DNA of 60,209 nt from Vulcanimicrobiota bacterium (GCA_003135555.1 PLCF01000063.1:1-60209), one strand, 5' to 3'; positions 1 to 7,692 are shown, counted from the first letter of the stretch. Numbers and translations: made by a program. The notes: a model not told the origin generated them from the sequence alone.

Positions 1-3
1 GTT

Positions 4-20
4 CATAATTCTCAGTTATC
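4..20. other. Candidate tyrosine-recombinase core/crossover site (CATAA-N7-TTATC)
   Basis: A/T-rich imperfect inverted repeat cATAA ttctcag TTATc, 7 nt past the integrase stop codon; resembles dif/att core architecture. Confidence 0.35.
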
Positions 21-27
21 ATCCGGG

Positions 28-933
28 TCATGCTTTCGGTGCCGCGAAGTTGCCGAGGACATTTGCGCGAGCGATGGCCGTTTGCAGGGCGCGATCGCTT
101 ACGTGGGTATAAATCTGGGTCGTCAGGATGCTTCGGTGGCCGAGAAGGCGCTGGACGAAGCGAATGTCGGTACCCGATTCTAGCAGCATCGTCGCTGCCG
201 TGTGACGCAGCATGTGGGGCGTGACGCGACGGCTGACGCCCGCGATGCGGCCTAGCTCAGCGATCGCCCTGCGGATGCGAGCGGGTGAAAGCGGACGGCC
301 GACCGCGTCTACGAGGAGTCGGCGCTCCGCGACGTTGCCCCGAGCGCCGTGGCGCACGCCGATGTAGGACCGAAGCTCTTCGCGGATTCGTACGTCGGTG
401 ACGAAGACGGTTCGCTCGCGGCTACCCTTGCCGAAAATTCGTAGGCGGCCTGCCGATGAATCCACGTCGCCGATGATTAACGTAGACAGCTCGCCGACTC
501 GCATCCCGGTAGCAAGAAGCAGCGCAATCGCAAGCGCTGAATCAGCCCCGCGCGCCGACCGGTGTAGCATGAGGCGCCGCAAGTCGCGGCCTTCTAGGCA
601 GCGTGGCAGGCGAGCGGGGAGGCGGATGCGCAACTCCGTCCGGGCAAATGGTGACGCGTCGAGTACATCGCGGCGCACGAGCCAAGCAAACAGCGCCCGC
701 AGACACGCGAGACGGCGCTTCACAGTAGCGGCGGCCAGGCCGCGCGCGCTCGACAACACGTTTCGATAGGAAAGAATGTCGGCGGGCGCTATTCGCGCTA
801 TAGCCCGCGGCGCCCCGAGATAGCTTTGGAATTCGGCGAGATCCTGACGGTAGGCGTTGATCGTGTTCGGGGCTAGGTGCTTTTCCTCGGAGCAGTAGCG
901 AAGAAAAGCCGCGGCAGCAGCAGAAACGCGCAT
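28..933 (-). CDS. Tyrosine recombinase/integrase, XerC/XerD family
   Basis: N-terminal SAM-like domain (LAPNTINAYRQDL); catalytic motifs TGMRVGEL, GKGSRER, HMLRHTAAT, LLGH..ILTTQIYTH; ATG at 933 preceded by GGAGG. Confidence 0.93.
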   Translation of the reverse strand: MRVSAAAAAFLRYCSEEKHLAPNTINAYRQDLAEFQSYLGAPRAIARIAPADILSYRNVLSSARGLAAATVKRRLACLRALFAWLVRRDVLDASPFARTELRIRLPARLPRCLEGRDLRRLMLHRSARGADSALAIALLLATGMRVGELSTLIIGDVDSSAGRLRIFGKGSRERTVFVTDVRIREELRSYIGVRHGARGNVAERRLLVDAVGRPLSPARIRRAIAELGRIAGVSRRVTPHMLRHTAATMLLESGTDIRFVQRLLGHRSILTTQIYTHVSDRALQTAIARANVLGNFAAPKA

Positions 934-941
934 GGAGACCT

Positions 942-984
942 CCGGTTGGGTACGGCAATCAAGCACCGGCGAACACCCAACCGG
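942..984. promoter_or_regulatory. Perfect 10-bp inverted repeat upstream of the integrase RBS
   Basis: CCGGTTGGGT (942-951) / ACCCAACCGG (975-984), 23-bp spacer; function unknown. Confidence 0.4.
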
Positions 985-1011
985 TCCGCCATTGTCTGAC
1001 CCCGCGCCCTA

Positions 1012-1038
1012 GCCGTCCTGCGTCTCCGCAGGGACGGC
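1012..1038 (-). terminator. GC-rich hairpin just after the stop of the acs 3' fragment
   Basis: GCCGTCCTGCG-TCTC-CGCAG-GGACGGC stem with one bulge; no U-tract. Confidence 0.35.
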
Positions 1039-1040
1039 CG

Positions 1041-1685
1041 CTACTCTTCGAGCGTCGTTACGTCCCCGAGGTCTTGGCCCGTCTCTTGGGCTTTGAGCAG
1101 CCTGCGCATGATCTTACCGCTCCGCGTCTTCGGCAGCTTTGCGGTGAACCGGATCGCGGCGGGCGTTGCGATCGGGCCGAGCTCGTGCCTAACGTGGTCG
1201 ATCAGCTGCCTCGCAAGCTCGTCCGACTGCGTGTAGCCCGCGCGCAGCACCACGTAGGCGATGATCGCCTCTCCCTTGATCTCGTCTGGGACGCCGCAGA
1301 CGCCGGCTTCGCCGCACGCGGGAAACGATACGAGGGCGCTCTCCACGTCGGCGGTCGCGATGCGATGGCCTGCTATGCTGAGCGCGTCGTCGGCGCGGCG
1401 CACCGTGATGTAGCCTTGCTCGTCGATCGTCGCGACGTCGCCGGCGACGTATACGCCCCACCTGAAGTACTGCGCGTAGCGCTCCGGGTCGTTCCAAACC
1501 GAGGCGAACATGTACGGCAGCGGTGTCTCGACGACCAGTAGCCCGCCCGCATTCTGCGGTACCGGCGCGCCGCCGGCGTCGCGAATGGAGTACGCGATCG
1601 GCCCCAGCGATTTGCCGCTGCGATCAGGGCGAACCGCCGTTGTCGGAAAGACACCGAGACACGGCGCGGCCAATTCCGTTTGCCA
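1041..1685 (-). pseudogene. Displaced 3' fragment of acetyl-CoA synthetase (C-terminal ~214 aa)
   Basis: Collinear with the C-terminus of 4985..6868 from WQTELAAP to GDVTTLEE; homology starts abruptly at the 17-bp repeat; one-codon deletion (TVR-RADD vs TVRGRADD). Confidence 0.9.
1669..1685. repeat. 17-bp direct repeat, copy 1 (putative att core)
   Basis: GCCAATTCCGTTTGCCA, identical to 5616-5632. Confidence 0.85.
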
Positions 1686-1808
1686 GCAGGCAGGCTGCAA
1701 AGGCGACACCGTGGACCGGTATTTTGCAGCGCAAGCCCAGCGGACGGCGGGTCACGTATTCCTGGATACGCTCCTAGCCCGCTTAGCGCGAAGACTCCTC
1801 GATTGAAG

Positions 1809-3275
1809 CTAGATCAGTGCGCTCGGGTTGTCGTCGGTAACGAGCAATGTCAGCCCCAGGCGTGCTCGACTAATCGCGACGTACGCTAACCTTCGTCCTT
1901 CATCGGTGTCTGGAAAGTGGCTCGCGCTGAAGTTTGACACCAGGACCTGGTCGAACTCGAGTCCCTTCGCGCGATGAATGGTGCTGGCCGCAAAGCCCGG
2001 TCGACGGGAATTGCTCTTATAGGCAGCCACAATCTCGTGCAACTGATCGCGAGCAAGCGCACCATCTGTTTCGGTAACGGATGCGAAAATCGTCAGCGCA
2101 GCCGGGCGCTCCACACGCAGCCAGTCAGGTGTCTCACGGGAAATCTGTGCGAACACCTGAGCAGCACCCCGCAGATTTGGCTCCGAGTAAAGGGGGCCGA
2201 ACAATTCCAAAAGCGGTGACACTTCGTGACGCCGCCCAGCAACGAACACATCTTGGAGGGACGCTTCGATCCGGGCTCTTCGAGCCGCGGTGAGACCTAT
2301 GGTTACTTGCGCTAGGATTCCCAGCATAACGCGTGCGACCGCCGAAGGCGAGCCCGATACGCCCACGACGTCTTCAAGGCCTTGATAGATATGGCTGAAA
2401 TCGGAACCCTCGTAGATCGCGACCAGGCCAGGTGCTGCCGCACGCTTCAAAGTTACGGCATGGTTACGCCGAGCGCTCAAAAGAGCGCCGCTGCCCGCGC
2501 CTTGGATTCTTCGCACAAAGCCTGTATAGTCGATTGGGATTCCCGGCGAAAATCGGACGTCGCGGACACGCACGCGCTCGATGCGGACGCTTCGGGGCAG
2601 CGTCCCAGTCGGTAGGGGAGCACCGGCAAGCAGAGCAGCACGCGCAGCGAGTATCCACTCGCCGAGTTCAGGGGCGTCTTGCCAGCGGTAAGGAGTGGCC
2701 AGATGCTCCTCACTTTCGGCATCCGCCTGAATCGCTGCCCACCCGAAGCCATCTTCAGCCGGAAAAATTGTCTGCATCGGATCGCCGAAGGCGCGAACTC
2801 TGGCGCCGCGCCGGCGGAGCGCCATTGCTATCTCGTGCTGGCTGCGACTCGCATCTTGATGCTCGTCCAAGATCAGAACTGGAAACTGCTCGGCCAACAT
2901 GTCTCCAATAACGGGGCACCTTTCAATTAACACCGCCGCATGTCTCGAAAGGTCGGCAGGCAGCAACATTTCGGCGCCCTCTCCGACGCGCAGTGGTTCC
3001 GCAATTCCAAGGCCACTAGCATACGGCGCAATCAATTTTAGCGCGAGCGAATCAAATGTCGACACCGCGACTTTGTCACGTACATCGGCCGTTCGACTAG
3101 AGAACTCTTCGACGGCCGCATTGGTATGAGCGAGAACCAACACGCGCTTCCCTTGCGTCGTTCCGCCACCGACTGCACGGGCAAATTCGGCCGCGGCATA
3201 CGTCTTCCCGCAGCCAGCCGCGGCATCGACGAGGACGAAGCCCGCGTTCGAGTTTAGAGCATCCTCAAGAGCCAC
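1809..3275 (-). CDS. UvrD/Rep-like SF1 helicase, Gabija GajB-like
   Basis: AAAGCGKT, LAHTNAAVEE, LDEHQD, GDPMQTIF, STIHRAKGLEFD, YVAISRAR; short (488 aa); GTG start overlaps the TAG of the upstream OLD nuclease. Confidence 0.85.
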   Translation of the reverse strand: MALEDALNSNAGFVLVDAAAGCGKTYAAAEFARAVGGGTTQGKRVLVLAHTNAAVEEFSSRTADVRDKVAVSTFDSLALKLIAPYASGLGIAEPLRVGEGAEMLLPADLSRHAAVLIERCPVIGDMLAEQFPVLILDEHQDASRSQHEIAMALRRRGARVRAFGDPMQTIFPAEDGFGWAAIQADAESEEHLATPYRWQDAPELGEWILAARAALLAGAPLPTGTLPRSVRIERVRVRDVRFSPGIPIDYTGFVRRIQGAGSGALLSARRNHAVTLKRAAAPGLVAIYEGSDFSHIYQGLEDVVGVSGSPSAVARVMLGILAQVTIGLTAARRARIEASLQDVFVAGRRHEVSPLLELFGPLYSEPNLRGAAQVFAQISRETPDWLRVERPAALTIFASVTETDGALARDQLHEIVAAYKSNSRRPGFAASTIHRAKGLEFDQVLVSNFSASHFPDTDEGRRLAYVAISRARLGLTLLVTDDNPSALI

Positions 3276-4933
3276 TATGCCTTTAACCGGTCCGCAAATG
3301 GCTGAAGCTCATCTTGCATCTCCCGCGGTATGCCTATTTCAAGCAGTGCTCGGCCCAGACGCTCGCCGTGTTCCGCGGTCTTAAACCACGACAATTCATT
3401 CATTACTCTTGCCAGGGCATCGCGCAAAGTTTGCTCGTCAAAACTCTTTGCAATCGCCTCCCACTCCGATTTAACCGGCTCGGCCAGGGTCGGCAGCGCT
3501 TCCTTTAGCTGATCCATCAGGTACCGTTCCTCCATCCGCGCTGCCGCAAGCACGTGGCCCATCTGGGCCATCGGCACGTAGCGTGCAACAGCTTCTTCGA
3601 TGTTCTTTACGCTGGCCCAGAAGAAGGAGGTCGCGACAGCAGCGACTTTAGCGCGCGTTCCTTCGAGCTCCGTTTCGTTGTCTGCGAATACGGCGACGCG
3701 AATACCAGCGTCCGCAAGTCCTTTGGCAAGATCTAGCGTAGGCCCGTGACCGCCGCCATCGACAGGATGAATCCCGAGAGCTTCGAGCGAGCTTCCCGTA
3801 AGGCTTGGGAGGATTGCGCGCAACAGCCCGATTTCGGTAACACCTTCACAAACGATCGGCAGTGGGGCGAAAAACGCTTCAGGATCTTGCCTAAGGAGTC
3901 GGGCGAAGACGGTGGGAGAAAAGAGAATGGGATTCTTGCTTGCGTCGAGCCTCCACACTGCCGAAGCTGAAAATGCCCGCAACATGGTCGGCGAGTGCGT
4001 CGCAATAAATGCTTGGCCTCGCGCGCCCAGTTCCGCAATCGCCGCAGCGGCGATCCTCTGACGAAACGGTTCAAGTCCGCGTTCAGGCTCGTCGAAAGTC
4101 AGCACGACTAAATTCGGTGCGGATCGGCTAATCAAGGACACGGCCAAGAGCGCCTTCGTGCCGTTGCCGCTAAGGGCGATAGGAATTGCAGTCTGCCTAT
4201 CTACGCCTCGAAGTATGTCTAGGAGCTGAAGTAAGTCCGCACCATGGGGAGAGCCGAGTCCAATCATTATGTCATCGGGAAGACCTACCGCCTTAAACAG
4301 CGTCCGGAGATCTTCAATTGTGTCCGTCGCGGCTTGTGGAAGCGTTAGGCCTGCAGAAGCAGCCGCGAGAGCCCCTTGTGCAGCTCCTCTTAAGGCTGCG
4401 GCGTCGAATTGGCGTCCTAGTAGACTCGTTTGTGAGACTCGTAACGCGCGCGAGGCCGTGTCGTCATCGAGAACTCGAACAAGGCCCAACTTCTTTCTCA
4501 GCGCCACCGAAAACGGAAATGGATCTCCGCTCGGTGCCACAATCTCATGAACGGCTTCCAGATCTGCGGTGCCGGCGACTCGAATCTTGAGTACAGGTTC
4601 GGTTCCCGCGCTGGGTAGCATTTCAAGCGAACCGTCCTCCTTGAGTCCGAAGAGCGGCGGTAGCCGACGGTCCGTCGATAGCGTCGTGGCATCCAGCCCG
4701 CTTAATAGTGCTTCGATTTCAAAGCCATCTGCAACCCGGCGTTCAAAGTAGTCAAATTCAGAACGCGCGCCTTGAGCGGACGGCGCCAACAAAAGCGAGA
4801 TCGCAGCCAAGACGTTACTCTTCCCGCCGTCCGCCGGGCCAACAAACACGTTAACGCCCGAGTGCGGGGTCCACGTGAAATCGCGTAGTGAGCGGTATCT
4901 CTTGATGGTTAGTCGTCTGATCGCGATGGCCAT
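3275..4933 (-). CDS. OLD-family ATP-dependent endonuclease (ABC ATPase + TOPRIM), Gabija GajA-like
   Basis: N-terminal IKRYRSL, Walker A GPADGGKS, Walker B FDEPERGLEP, IATHSP, TOPRIM CEGVTE ... ADNE. Confidence 0.85.
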   Translation of the reverse strand: MAIAIRRLTIKRYRSLRDFTWTPHSGVNVFVGPADGGKSNVLAAISLLLAPSAQGARSEFDYFERRVADGFEIEALLSGLDATTLSTDRRLPPLFGLKEDGSLEMLPSAGTEPVLKIRVAGTADLEAVHEIVAPSGDPFPFSVALRKKLGLVRVLDDDTASRALRVSQTSLLGRQFDAAALRGAAQGALAAASAGLTLPQAATDTIEDLRTLFKAVGLPDDIMIGLGSPHGADLLQLLDILRGVDRQTAIPIALSGNGTKALLAVSLISRSAPNLVVLTFDEPERGLEPFRQRIAAAAIAELGARGQAFIATHSPTMLRAFSASAVWRLDASKNPILFSPTVFARLLRQDPEAFFAPLPIVCEGVTEIGLLRAILPSLTGSSLEALGIHPVDGGGHGPTLDLAKGLADAGIRVAVFADNETELEGTRAKVAAVATSFFWASVKNIEEAVARYVPMAQMGHVLAAARMEERYLMDQLKEALPTLAEPVKSEWEAIAKSFDEQTLRDALARVMNELSWFKTAEHGERLGRALLEIGIPREMQDELQPFADRLKA

Positions 4934-4984
4934 TCAACACCCGTCGCCCTTTCAGCCATACCTAAGGTCTATCGAGGGTTACTA

Positions 4985-6868
4985 TCATTCTTCCAGTGTA
5001 GTCACATCGCCCAGCTCCTGGCCGGTTTCCTGCGCCTTCAGCAGGCGGCGCATGATCTTGCCACTGCGCGTCTTTGGCAGTTTCGAAGCGAAGCGGATAG
5101 CGGACGGCGTTGCTATCGGGCCGAGCTCGTGGCGGACGTGCGCGACTAGGTCGGCGGCAAGCGCATCTGACGCCGAGAATCCACTGCGCAGTACGACGTA
5201 TGCAACGATTGCTTCACCCTTAATCTCATCCGGCACACCACAGACTCCCGCTTCGCCGCAAGCTCGGTGCGAGACAAGCGCGCTTTCGACATCCGCCGTG
5301 GCAATGCGATGTCCGGCGATACTGAGAACGTCGTCGGCACGTCCACGCACCGTGATGTAGCCGTCGGAGTCGATCGTCGCGACGTCACCGGCGACGTAGA
5401 CGCCCCAGCGGAAATACTGGACATAACGCTCGGGATCGTTCCACACTGTGGAAAACATATATGGCAAGGGTGTCTCGACCACTAGAAGTCCGCCTTGACC
5501 GGGCGACAACTTTGCGCCATTAGCATCGCGTATCGAAAACGCGACTGGCCCAAGCGCTTTGCCACTTCGGTCGGGGCGTACGGCGGACGTCGGGAACACA
5601 CCGATAGTCGGCGCAGCCAATTCCGTTTGCCACCACTGATTGCACACGGCGACGTTCGTGCCGCCGACGGTCTCGTAGAGGAAGCGCCACGCCTCCGGGT
5701 TGAGCGGCTCGCCCGCACAGTACATTGCTTTGAGCGAAGACATGTCGTGCTTCGCAGCCAGCTCGCCGCCGAGCCGCAGCAGCATGCGCGCCAGGGTTGG
5801 CGCCGTATAAAACTGTGTCACCCTCAGACGGTCGATGGTGGCGTACACCGCGTCCGGAGCCGGAAAGTCGGGTGAGCCTTCACGCAGGACGCAGTGGTAG
5901 CGGTTGGCCAGCGCGCCGTACACCATGATGCTGTGCCCGACGATCCAGCCGATGTCGCTGGTGCACCAATAGACGTCGTCCGGCGTGATCCCGGTCGTCA
6001 GCGCGAGCATCGCCGCGGCCCCCACCAGGTAGCCGCCGTGCGTCATCACCACACCCTTGGGCTTGCCGGTCGTCCCGCTGGTGTAGAGGATGAAGAGCGG
6101 GTGCTCCGAGCCGACGATCTCCGGGTCGCACTCCGTGCCCTGCCCGTCGCAATACGCCTCGAAGTTGACCTCGCGGGGATCGGCGGGCTCGGGGCTCGCC
6201 TCGCGGCGGTGCACGATGATCCGGCGCACCAGCTCGAGACCGCGCACCGCATCGTCGACGATCGGCTTCAGCGTAACCGTCTTGCCCCGGCGGTAGGTCA
6301 CGTCGCCCACGATCATCACCGTCGCACCGGCATCCACGATGCGGTCGCGCAGCGAGGTCGCTCCGAGCCCGGCGTACACCACCGAGTGGATCGCGCCGAT
6401 CCGCGCGCACGCCAGCATCGCGACGATCCCTTCGATCGTCAGCGGCATGTAGATGATGACGCGATCGCCGACGGCGACCCCGTCGAACCGCAGCGCGTTG
6501 GCGAGCTGATTCACGCGCGCCAACAGTTGAGCGTACGTGAACGTGCGCTCGTCGCCGTTCTCGCAGACGTAACGGTATGCGATCGCCTCGGCGTGATGCG
6601 CGGCGTGACGATCGAGGCACGAGACCGTTGCGTTGAGCTCTCCGTCAGGGAACCAATGCTGATCGTCGATCGCGCCGGTGAACACGGTCTGCGGCTCGGT
6701 CTCCCACGCAATGTCGCGCGCGCGTTCCCGCCAGAACGCGATCGGATCGCGCAGTGCTGCAGCGACGAACGCATCTTGATCCGCGATCGGGAACCATGAC
6801 GAGACGCCCGGCGGCGGCGGAACCACCTCGCCTGTCGAGAGCAGACCTTCGATATGGGGCGACGACAT
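4985..6868 (-). CDS. acs: Acetate--CoA ligase (acetyl-CoA synthetase)
   Basis: MLACARIGAIHSVV, YTSGTTGKPKGV, DIGWIVGHS, WWQTE, LPKTRSGKIMRR. Confidence 0.93.
   Translation of the reverse strand: MSSPHIEGLLSTGEVVPPPPGVSSWFPIADQDAFVAAALRDPIAFWRERARDIAWETEPQTVFTGAIDDQHWFPDGELNATVSCLDRHAAHHAEAIAYRYVCENGDERTFTYAQLLARVNQLANALRFDGVAVGDRVIIYMPLTIEGIVAMLACARIGAIHSVVYAGLGATSLRDRIVDAGATVMIVGDVTYRRGKTVTLKPIVDDAVRGLELVRRIIVHRREASPEPADPREVNFEAYCDGQGTECDPEIVGSEHPLFILYTSGTTGKPKGVVMTHGGYLVGAAAMLALTTGITPDDVYWCTSDIGWIVGHSIMVYGALANRYHCVLREGSPDFPAPDAVYATIDRLRVTQFYTAPTLARMLLRLGGELAAKHDMSSLKAMYCAGEPLNPEAWRFLYETVGGTNVAVCNQWWQTELAAPTIGVFPTSAVRPDRSGKALGPVAFSIRDANGAKLSPGQGGLLVVETPLPYMFSTVWNDPERYVQYFRWGVYVAGDVATIDSDGYITVRGRADDVLSIAGHRIATADVESALVSHRACGEAGVCGVPDEIKGEAIVAYVVLRSGFSASDALAADLVAHVRHELGPIATPSAIRFASKLPKTRSGKIMRRLLKAQETGQELGDVTTLEE
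5616..5632. repeat. 17-bp direct repeat, copy 2 (putative att core inside intact acs)
   Basis: GCCAATTCCGTTTGCCA = codons for WQTELA on the minus strand. Confidence 0.85.
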
Positions 6869-7692
6869 CAGACTTTGATGTAGTCGTGCTGGTCGATCAC
6901 GGGGCCGGCCGGGCCGTTCGTCACGTGATAGGTCGCGAAGTACGAACCGCGTCCGTTGCTCAGCTCCACTTCGATCACGGCGCCGTTGGCGTCGCTCGAG
7001 GTCGTCCGGATCGAGGTGATGCGCGTCTGGCGGTCGATGAACGCTTCCTCGGACAGGCCGCCCGAGCCGGGCGGTTTGCCCAACTCGGCGTAGGCCGCAT
7101 TTTCGTTACCGGCGATCAAGTCGGCGAGGTAGCGGCGCACCGCGTTCTGTGCGACGCCGCCGAAGGTCAGCGGCGTGGGCGCGCTCGTCGGCGGTCGGGG
7201 CGTCTCGGGTCGCGGCGACGGTGTCGCCGGCGGCTTGGTTTGCGCCGGTCGCGGCGACGCCGTCGGCCGCGCCGTCGCGGTCGGACGCGCGGTCGCGGTC
7301 GGACGCGCGGTCGCAGTCGGTTCGGACGCCGGCGACTCGCTCGCTCGGGGCGACGGGGTCGCGCGCGGCGTCACGGTCGGCCGCGGCGTCGTCGCCGGGG
7401 TGGCGCTCACGCGCGGCGTCGGCGTCGGATGCGCGACGAGCGTCGCGATCGCTACCGGTCCACGCGTCGGCTGCGCGACCGGCGTCACCACGGGCATACC
7501 GTGCGGCGCGGTCGTAGCCGTCGACGTCGTCGTGCCGCCTTCCTTGTGCTGCAGGGCCGAAAGGAACGCGCCGATACCCAGCCCGGCGACGACCACGCCG
7601 ATCCCCAGCGCGATCGTCGGCCACAAGCTCGATGCTTCGGAGGAGCGCCGCGACGGCGGCGTGGAGCGACGACGGCGAGGCGGTTCGGCCAT
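6868..7692 (-). CDS. Membrane-anchored hypothetical protein with Pro/Thr-rich linker
   Basis: One N-terminal TM helix, TARPTA repeats, small C-terminal domain; stop overlaps the acs start (TGATG). Confidence 0.75.
   Translation of the reverse strand: MAEPPRRRRSTPPSRRSSEASSLWPTIALGIGVVVAGLGIGAFLSALQHKEGGTTTSTATTAPHGMPVVTPVAQPTRGPVAIATLVAHPTPTPRVSATPATTPRPTVTPRATPSPRASESPASEPTATARPTATARPTATARPTASPRPAQTKPPATPSPRPETPRPPTSAPTPLTFGGVAQNAVRRYLADLIAGNENAAYAELGKPPGSGGLSEEAFIDRQTRITSIRTTSSDANGAVIEVELSNGRGSYFATYHVTNGPAGPVIDQHDYIKV
7274..7320. repeat. 18-bp in-frame tandem repeat (TARPTA)
   Basis: GTCGCGGTCGGACGCGCG x2 plus a partial third copy. Confidence 0.7.

Follow-up and report, generated by a model that had tools for sequence, protein, structure and literature searches.

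A Gabija-like unit without an integrase has inserted in acs and supplies a substitute end for the gene in a peat Vulcanimicrobiota population

Why a bacterial chromosome should carry two diverged copies of the end of one gene, with only a pair of defence genes between them, is the question raised by a locus in the genome of a Vulcanimicrobiota bacterium. The stretch analysed, referred to here as the window, is 60,209 nucleotides long and starts at the first base of contig C55 of G000, a metagenome-assembled genome (MAG) of 98 contigs and 3.57 Mb, with 67.9% GC and 84% completeness; absence from this assembly is therefore not proof of absence. The gene is acs, which encodes a 627-residue protein (6868-4985, minus strand) scoring 682.6 bits against the acetate-CoA ligase subfamily model NF001208, for which the cut-off is 657. 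On the minus strand it is followed by gajA, gajB, an orphan acs fragment and a tyrosine recombinase gene, beyond which the contig ends. The evidence below indicates that a foreign unit, carrying the gaj genes together with a replacement 3' end for acs, has been inserted precisely within the gene, and that the orphan fragment is the native end which it displaced.

The attached end, copy A (4985-5632, minus strand), consists of 215 codons and a stop and retains the PKTRSGK motif; the orphan, copy B (1041-1685, minus strand), lies in an open reading frame (ORF) that opens at 1709. The two align from a shared 17-bp core to the stop codon, with 476 of the 642 aligned nucleotides identical (74%), 45% identity at third codon positions and 83% identity over the 215 amino acids. 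Copy B has lost one codon through a 3-nt gap, such that RGRADD has become R-RADD, and upstream of the core it has no similarity to acs. The core itself, GCCAATTCCGTTTGCCA, spanning the codons W-Q-T-E-L-A, is present exactly twice in the window, as a left, attL-like copy at 5616-5632 and a right, attR-like copy at 1669-1685 (both minus strand), 3,947 bp apart. It was matched in none of 100 shuffled sequences, and no further copies were found in the 3.57-Mb assembly when up to three mismatches were allowed. Four identical runs of 17-18 nt occur in the alignment of the two ends, and the core is one of them; a run of this length is unremarkable in itself, and it is the placement of this one, exactly at the boundary of homology and at the crossover point, that is exceptional. 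The exact 17-mer is found in the acs genes of none of 31 relatives, which differ from it at one to four synonymous positions or more.

Which of the two ends is native can be judged from their identity to other genomes, their phylogeny and their composition. Among the 31 relatives, the nearest to the 5' part of acs (codons 1-412; 5633-6868, minus strand) are G009 (87.4% nucleotide identity) and G034 (87.0%), and the same two genomes are the nearest to copy B (82.9% and 82.7%, respectively). Copy A, by contrast, is 72-77% identical to all 31 with no preference, and along the intact gene the identity to G009 and G034 falls from approximately 88% up to the core to approximately 70% from just past it. 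When a protein tree is built from the 215 codons, copy B groups with G009 and G034 (ultrafast bootstrap, UFBoot, of 82), whereas copy A lies within another clade of the genus (UFBoot of 88). The GC content at third codon positions (GC3) is 0.864 in the 5' part of acs and 0.833 in copy B, but 0.644 in copy A, 0.579 in gajA and 0.605 in gajB; in the equivalent acs end of the 31 relatives it ranges from 0.82 to 0.98. The 74-bp gap between copy B and the recombinase gene is arranged as it is in relatives. As identity, tree and composition agree, copy A is foreign, having its composition in common with the cargo, and copy B is the original end of the gene. One genome of the genus that is flagged as unpublished (G032) supports no conclusion drawn here.

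If a unit has been inserted, uninterrupted versions of the gene should exist, and acs is indeed uninterrupted in 41 other genomes of the genus. A closer view of the site comes from metagenomes: the runs found to bear this DNA are labelled as peat metagenomes, and contigs from four runs of one study (X1-X4) were compared with positions 1-7500 of the window. X1 is a possible source sample of the MAG, while X2 and X4 are further samples from the same study, which makes them independent of the assembly, though not of the site. A 3,267-nt contig from X4 (depth 15) spans positions 5-1668 and 5616-7174 and omits precisely 3,947 nt at a joint where 17 letters match both sides. On the acs side, 31 letters in 1,559 nt distinguish this contig from the window, and on the recombinase side 86 letters in 1,664 nt, plus five gaps; it represents a strain of the same population, 95-98% identical, with an uninterrupted acs gene bearing a B-type end. 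Sample X2 contains both forms, with the cassette-filled version represented by error-free pieces covering 1622-3509 and 3602-5645 (depth 8), and a commoner variant (depth approximately 30) in which a contig passes 1685 directly into the 13 letters flanking the other core (5633-5645), which is the empty site. Error-free pieces from X1 cover 1422-5068 and 5043-5651.

Because both junctions are present in the contigs of X1 and X2, the cassette structure cannot be an artefact of the MAG assembly. The empty-site strains also retain a GCC codon after position 1397, and the loss of this codon from the orphan consequently postdates its displacement. The comparison was made with Logan contigs, from which rare forms drop out, and within this limit no circle, recognisable as a back-joint at the core, was listed among the contigs of X1-X4. 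A few weak joints, such as that from 1629 to 5622, rest on a short side of 22-30 letters and were attributed to the acs genes of other organisms. The original prediction had proposed that the core, the attached acs end and the defence genes form an inserted unit that restores acs, that the orphan is one codon short, and that empty sites and the phylogeny of the two ends would reveal this; in all these respects it is supported.

The prediction that nothing but Gabija-like genes lies between the copies is equally borne out. The product of gajA (3275-4933, minus strand; 552 residues) combines an ABC-type ATPase with an OLD-like TOPRIM nuclease, matching the PADLOC model PDLC04168 over residues 4-534 (5.7e-73) and the Pfam families AAA_21, AAA_15 and OLD-like_TOPRIM (residues 354-419), while gajB (1809-3275, minus strand; 488 residues) encodes a UvrD-like helicase matching PDLC04173 (1.5e-47) and the Pfam families UvrD-helicase and UvrD_C. 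The start of gajB, which is directly downstream, overlaps the stop of gajA at 3275. With both components recognised by these models, the pair is predicted to constitute a Gabija defence system. These genes begin 51 bp past the stop codon of acs; a scan of positions 1-7200 returned three promoter-like and five terminator-like sites, no more than in shuffled sequences, and none between acs and gajA; the defence genes may be expressed by read-through from acs. GajA is present in only this one of the 44 genomes of the genus and absent from the 43 others. The nearest relative found, in a record of a Ca. Eremiobacteraeota MAG, is 45-47% identical, has no acs beside it and was the sole match in the genome contig collection; no GajA relatives were found in the metagenome and viral contig collections.

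Beyond gajB lies a 123-bp non-coding tail (1686-1808, minus strand; GC 0.62) without similarity to acs. Within it, between 1686 and 1740 on the minus strand and directly upstream of the right core, is a perfect 8-bp inverted repeat, GCTGCAAA...TTTGCAGC, the half-sites of which resemble the left arm of the core, CTGGCAAA. This repeat could be a candidate binding site, or a mere hairpin.

The substitution pattern of copy A provides some indication of its history. Relative to its nearest relatives, the proportion of non-synonymous differences (pN) is 0.07 and that of synonymous differences (pS) 0.69-0.74, compared with genus medians of 0.13 and 0.47, respectively. The substitute end is thus under strong purifying selection, with a very low dN/dS. 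Such a combination of low pN and near-saturated pS implies that copy A has long been kept functional under a different mutational bias. We read this as the result of a long stay on mobile DNA, in which the sequence has repeatedly had to supply a working end for acs, and a long-lived element seems to fit these values better than a recently captured piece of chromosome, although an unsampled lower-GC member of the genus could also have been the donor.

How the unit arrived is less certain than the fact that it did. The reading favoured here, to which we would assign a probability of roughly 0.55, is that it is an integrase-less gene-end-replacement element resembling a cis-mobilisable element (CIME), which was installed by one conservative crossover at the core, its recombinase having been lost or acting in trans. 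The unit extends from 1686 to 5632 (3,947 bp, of lower GC) and comprises the 648-bp substitute acs end, gajA, gajB and the 123-bp tail. It would have entered the chromosome as a circle, through a single reciprocal crossover that is conservative and falls within the 17-bp core of acs (coding strand: TGGCAAACGGAATTGGC). The gene is not inactivated by such an insertion, because the unit brings a copy of everything downstream of the crossover: the product is a chimeric but intact acs of 412 native and 215 foreign codons, the latter including the catalytic-lysine motif, with the native 3' end left behind as an orphan that is starting to decay. The unit may be either a small integrative element in its own right or the remnant of a larger one still flanked by attachment (att) sites, as in CIMEs; the recombinase would then have been lost through internal deletion or be supplied in trans. 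Candidates for the latter role would be the neighbouring recombinase and two integrases encoded elsewhere in the assembly, none of which is linked to the core.

Several observations count against this reading. No recombinase gene lies inside 1686-5632, where gajA and gajB are the only genes. The dyad symmetry of the core is weak (GGCAA/TTGGC, 4/5), and a substitute end of 648 bp is unusually long for a gene end borne on a phage-type attachment site (attP), being approximately four times the 165 bp that prophage e14 provides for icd. Further, no other cargo was found at the core in 43 other genomes of the genus, 401 genomes of the phylum or 66 metagenome loci, and no second cassette or A-type acs end with low GC3 was found in the genus, phylum, metagenome, viral and genome collections. 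With a single occurrence, the case for mobility rests on one insertion event. Finally, the duplicated acs ends that do exist in relatives begin near codons 531-539, rather than at the WQTELA core as had been expected.

These duplications are found at two loci. In G036 (locus L017, contig C20), acs is followed by 3.6 kb of cargo and then by a frameshifted acs fragment of approximately 232 bp, which is 84% identical to the attached copy overall and entirely identical over its last 95 nt or so. The second, L152, is a metagenome contig of 4.3 kb, with 93-97% identity to G034, in which an acs end is succeeded by an aminotransferase gene, an ORF of 141 codons whose product matches the PADLOC model Drt1b (3e-26), a 3' fragment of an ATP-binding cassette (ABC) transporter ATPase gene and, abutting this, a decayed acs fragment (79% identity, with an 8-nt deletion), before the recombinase gene and the site associated with it. 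Both show that the locus is prone to rearrangement, and that scars of acs ends arise there without involvement of the core, through events that are not site-specific.

The searches for sister elements were otherwise unproductive. An orthologous acs end was detected at E<=1e-55 in 69 of the 401 phylum genomes, with two on one contig only in G000, and none of the 66 metagenome loci had a second long acs copy or a genus-type end of low GC3. There is no further acs 3' copy elsewhere in the G000 assembly, no relative of copy A in the viral contig collection, and no parental integrative and conjugative element (ICE), integrative and mobilisable element (IME) or prophage sharing the att specificity of the unit in the assembly, genus, phylum, metagenome or viral searches. 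Partial acs matches in three genomes (G013, G021 and G389; loci L090, L091 and L092) were considered as potential orphans and rejected, since they are full-length genes split by frame shifts. Numerous frame shifts interrupt acs at these three loci, as well as the ABC-transporter genes beside it, and may result from assembly error or pseudogenisation.

The strongest rival explanation, rather unlikely in our estimation but deserving of serious consideration, dispenses with a dedicated recombinase altogether. A fragment of donor DNA consisting of the 3' part of acs, gajA and gajB would have been circularised by chance, after which a single crossover of the Campbell type, relying on short homology to the recipient acs and either RecA-dependent or illegitimate, would have integrated it, with the core being simply the run of identity that was used. 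This would be in keeping with a locus that behaves as a recombination-prone variable interval between acs and an operon for a branched-chain amino-acid ABC transporter, as the acs gene, 3.6-kb cargo and frameshifted acs fragment of G036 illustrate; the adjoining ABC ATPase and acs fragments of L152 are just the leftover expected from a circularised chromosomal segment. Likewise, given the four runs of 17-18 identical nucleotides, the core is not a unique substrate, and no other use of it has been found. Against this stand two coincidences that would be required, namely that the homology should start at a run of identity (approximately 3%) and that this same run should then be used (approximately 1/4), both figures being rough estimates. 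Homologous recombination is also strongly disfavoured at 74% identity. Moreover, the GC3 of 0.64, the near-saturated pS and the pN of 0.07 of copy A are unlike those of a piece recently taken from a chromosome of the genus, as all 31 sampled relatives have a GC3 of at least 0.82. A site-defined element is preferred because the boundary of homology and the crossover share a single 17-nt run, and because copy A is both old and under selection.

A further possibility, which was part of the original prediction and which we regard as improbable, is that the adjacent recombinase (28-966, minus strand) was responsible for placing the cassette at the acs core, and that the locus functions as an integron-like platform on which cassettes are stacked, each swapping the C-terminus of the enzyme. 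The recombinase gene adjoins the displaced fragment and there is variable cargo beyond it; furthermore, duplications of the acs end (in G000, G036 and L152) occur in three of 19 loci bearing the recombinase and in none of approximately 45 loci without it, although these loci are related and the tally does not amount to a statistical test. The protein, of 312 residues with the Pfam domains Phage_integrase and Phage_int_SAM_1, scores best against the XerC model (210.6 bits, cut-off 335) and XerD (197.2 bits), both below the equivalog cut-offs, and only 122.9 bits against the integron-integrase model TIGR02249, for which the cut-off is 265. Orthologues with 58-80% amino acid identity are present in 11 of 36 other genomes of the genus that were searched. 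When 12 orthologue loci were examined, acs was found upstream on the same strand in 11, and in ten of these it is uninterrupted and separated from the recombinase gene by 60-1,350 bp. As an uninterrupted acs precedes the recombinase in the loci of ten relatives, the junction between orphan and recombinase in the window represents the ordinary native arrangement, and the gene is a resident Xer-like recombinase that is not part of the cassette. The stacking of cassettes likewise finds no support, since there is one cassette only, the assembly contains no third copy of acs, the relatives carry no alternative cargo at the core, and the duplications in G036 and L152 begin away from it.

The recombinase also appears to have sites of its own. 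A 15-bp sequence, ATAACTGAGAATTAT, which in the window reads ATAA-CTGAGAA-TTAT (5-19, minus strand) and lies 8 nt past the recombinase stop at the end of the contig, is found 0-14 nt past this stop in every one of the 12 genus loci where the gene end is intact, counting the window, and in six metagenome loci. The module of recombinase and site is present in the window and at L014-L024, L094, L097, L108, L111, L112 and L152. Where the sequence extends more than 100 nt further, an inverted copy of the site follows at a distance of 1.57-5.1 kb in eight of nine loci, the ninth ending 3.0 kb past the site. The two partners co-vary in their central 7 nt, both being CTAAGAA in G036 and both CTAGGAA in L112, which is the behaviour expected of partner sites that recombine with each other. 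These inverted pairs downstream of the gene have only the pentamer GAATT in common with the acs core TGGCAAACGGAATTGGC, and the likeness between the two was accordingly dropped as evidence that the recombinase acts on the core. A 16-mer version of the site gave 14 single matches in viral contigs, all with a GC content of 21-47% and none with a recombinase homologue; these were interpreted as chance occurrences.

Between the inverted sites are inward-facing genes with start codons that abut the sites, and the content differs in almost every genome. It includes an AAA_16 NTPase with an ATP-grasp protein, a CDP-alcohol phosphatidyltransferase, a methyltransferase, a pentapeptide-repeat protein, a TPR protein, a carbamoyltransferase with an AAA protein of 1,123 residues, and a glycosyltransferase with a DegT aminotransferase. 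Half of the site-bearing contigs (9/18) terminate no more than 100 nt past the first site. In G000 itself, contigs C55 and C77 open with an identical 20-mer containing the site, and C77 holds the ABC-transporter genes that come next at this locus in relatives, while the intervening segment is absent from the bin. The assembly graph evidently branches at the site, and the contig ends there probably reflect heterogeneity in the population, through inversion or exchange. The segment thus looks invertible or exchangeable, and matches no described system that could be named; as a lead separate from the cassette, it may be the more unusual of the two.

Taken together, the cassette and the inverted-site segment invite a more speculative proposal, which we consider doubtful at best. 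In this scheme the interval between acs and the ABC-transporter genes would act as an exchange platform with two modes, one in which the resident Xer-like enzyme flips or swaps the segment between the inverted 15-bp dif-like sites, as in recombinase-mediated cassette exchange, and another in which the same or a related enzyme, acting in trans, installs integrase-less gene-end replacement cassettes in acs. Were this to be the case, defence cargo would be able to spread without an integrase of its own and, in doing so, rewrite one third of an enzyme of core metabolism. The remaining explanation is that an ordinary segmental duplication copied the acs end locally, or that assembly fused two strains into a chimera. 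It might be entertained for a fragmented MAG (98 contigs, 84% complete) from samples in which several strains coexist, yet is highly improbable given that the copies are 26% different with GC3 of 0.64 and 0.83, precluding recent copying of either from the other, and that error-free contigs of X1 and X2 bridge both junctions.

Two other regions of the genome may be mentioned. The assembly contains four tyrosine recombinases in all, two of them integrases within a second mobile, defence-like region of G000, an island of lower GC (58-66%) that runs from the end of contig C69 (C69:1-29000) and also encodes helix-turn-helix (HTH) regulators, a SocA/Panacea antitoxin-like protein, a TIR/SEFIR protein and a DUF5131 protein. 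It was considered as a partner of the cassette and set aside as unlinked, since it contains neither acs-like sequence nor the core. Immediately upstream of acs, at 6868-7692 on the minus strand, is a gene for a Pro/Thr/Ala-rich protein of 274 residues, in which 18-bp tandem repeats encoding PTATAR units occupy 7243-7433, within a stretch of 76-78% GC.

The locus offers a clear case from nature, polymorphic in a single peat population, in which defence genes have come in on a minimal unit that lacks an integrase and spares its target gene by bringing 215 replacement codons. That the substitute end has been kept functional while its synonymous sites have drifted towards the lower GC of the cargo argues for the existence of long-lived carriers of gene ends. 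The Acs protein of the host becomes a chimera across a domain boundary region, and as such a case of horizontally swapped enzyme modules. The generality of these points is bounded by a single event, to which no recombinase has been assigned and for which there is no second cargo at the core.

The closest parallel is provided by the elements in icd of Escherichia coli: e14, phage 21 and their relatives integrate in this gene, according to PMC12803456. Like the acs unit, e14 and phage 21 insert in the 3' part of a gene of central metabolism, bring a substitute end and leave a pseudogene behind, and e14 also bears defence genes (lit and mcrA), as the unit described here bears Gabija. As annotated in strain K-12, e14 begins 165 bp ahead of the icd stop codon, and its far end is marked by icdC, a pseudogene of 165 bp. 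In common with an e14-type element, the acs unit has a 3' duplication in which the attached copy is that borne by the element, identical cores at both ends and a demonstrable empty site. It differs in encoding neither integrase nor excisionase, whereas e14 carries intE and xisE; in its size, 3.9 kb rather than 15.2 kb; and in replacing 648 bp (215 codons, approximately a third of the protein) rather than 165 bp.

The lack of a mobility gene is instead reminiscent of CIMEs, which are defined as retaining attL and attR while lacking integration and transfer genes (PMC5704250). The acs unit resembles these in having two identical cores and no mobility gene. However, the CIMEs of streptococcal ICE and IME systems are recognised by being related to a known ICE or IME with which they share att specificity, and move by accretion with it, and no such partner was found for the acs unit. 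Integrative mobile elements exploiting Xer (IMEXs), such as the CTX phage and the gonococcal genetic island, lack an integrase and rely for insertion on a resident recombinase of the Xer type; their att sites mimic dif. The acs cassette is similarly integrase-less and adjoins an Xer-like gene, but its core is not dif-like, whereas the sites of the neighbouring recombinase are (ATAA-N7-TTAT), and there is no evidence of action by this enzyme on the core.

In sedentary chromosomal integrons, small promoter-poor defence cassettes without recombinases of their own are found beside a fixed tyrosine recombinase. The acs locus differs from these in having no attC-like site or cassette array, in that the insertion lies inside a gene instead of at attI, and in that the neighbouring recombinase falls short of the IntI-type model TIGR02249. 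The products of the Gabija genes align with the PADLOC and Pfam models along almost their entire length, and the genes form an overlapping pair as in known systems, although their sequences are distant. A literature search, the coverage of which did not extend to subscription literature, found no report of acs as an integration target. The replacement of gene ends as such is familiar from e14 and phage 21; the present case differs in its target, acs, in the absence of an integrase, and in the length of the substitute end, at 648 bp.

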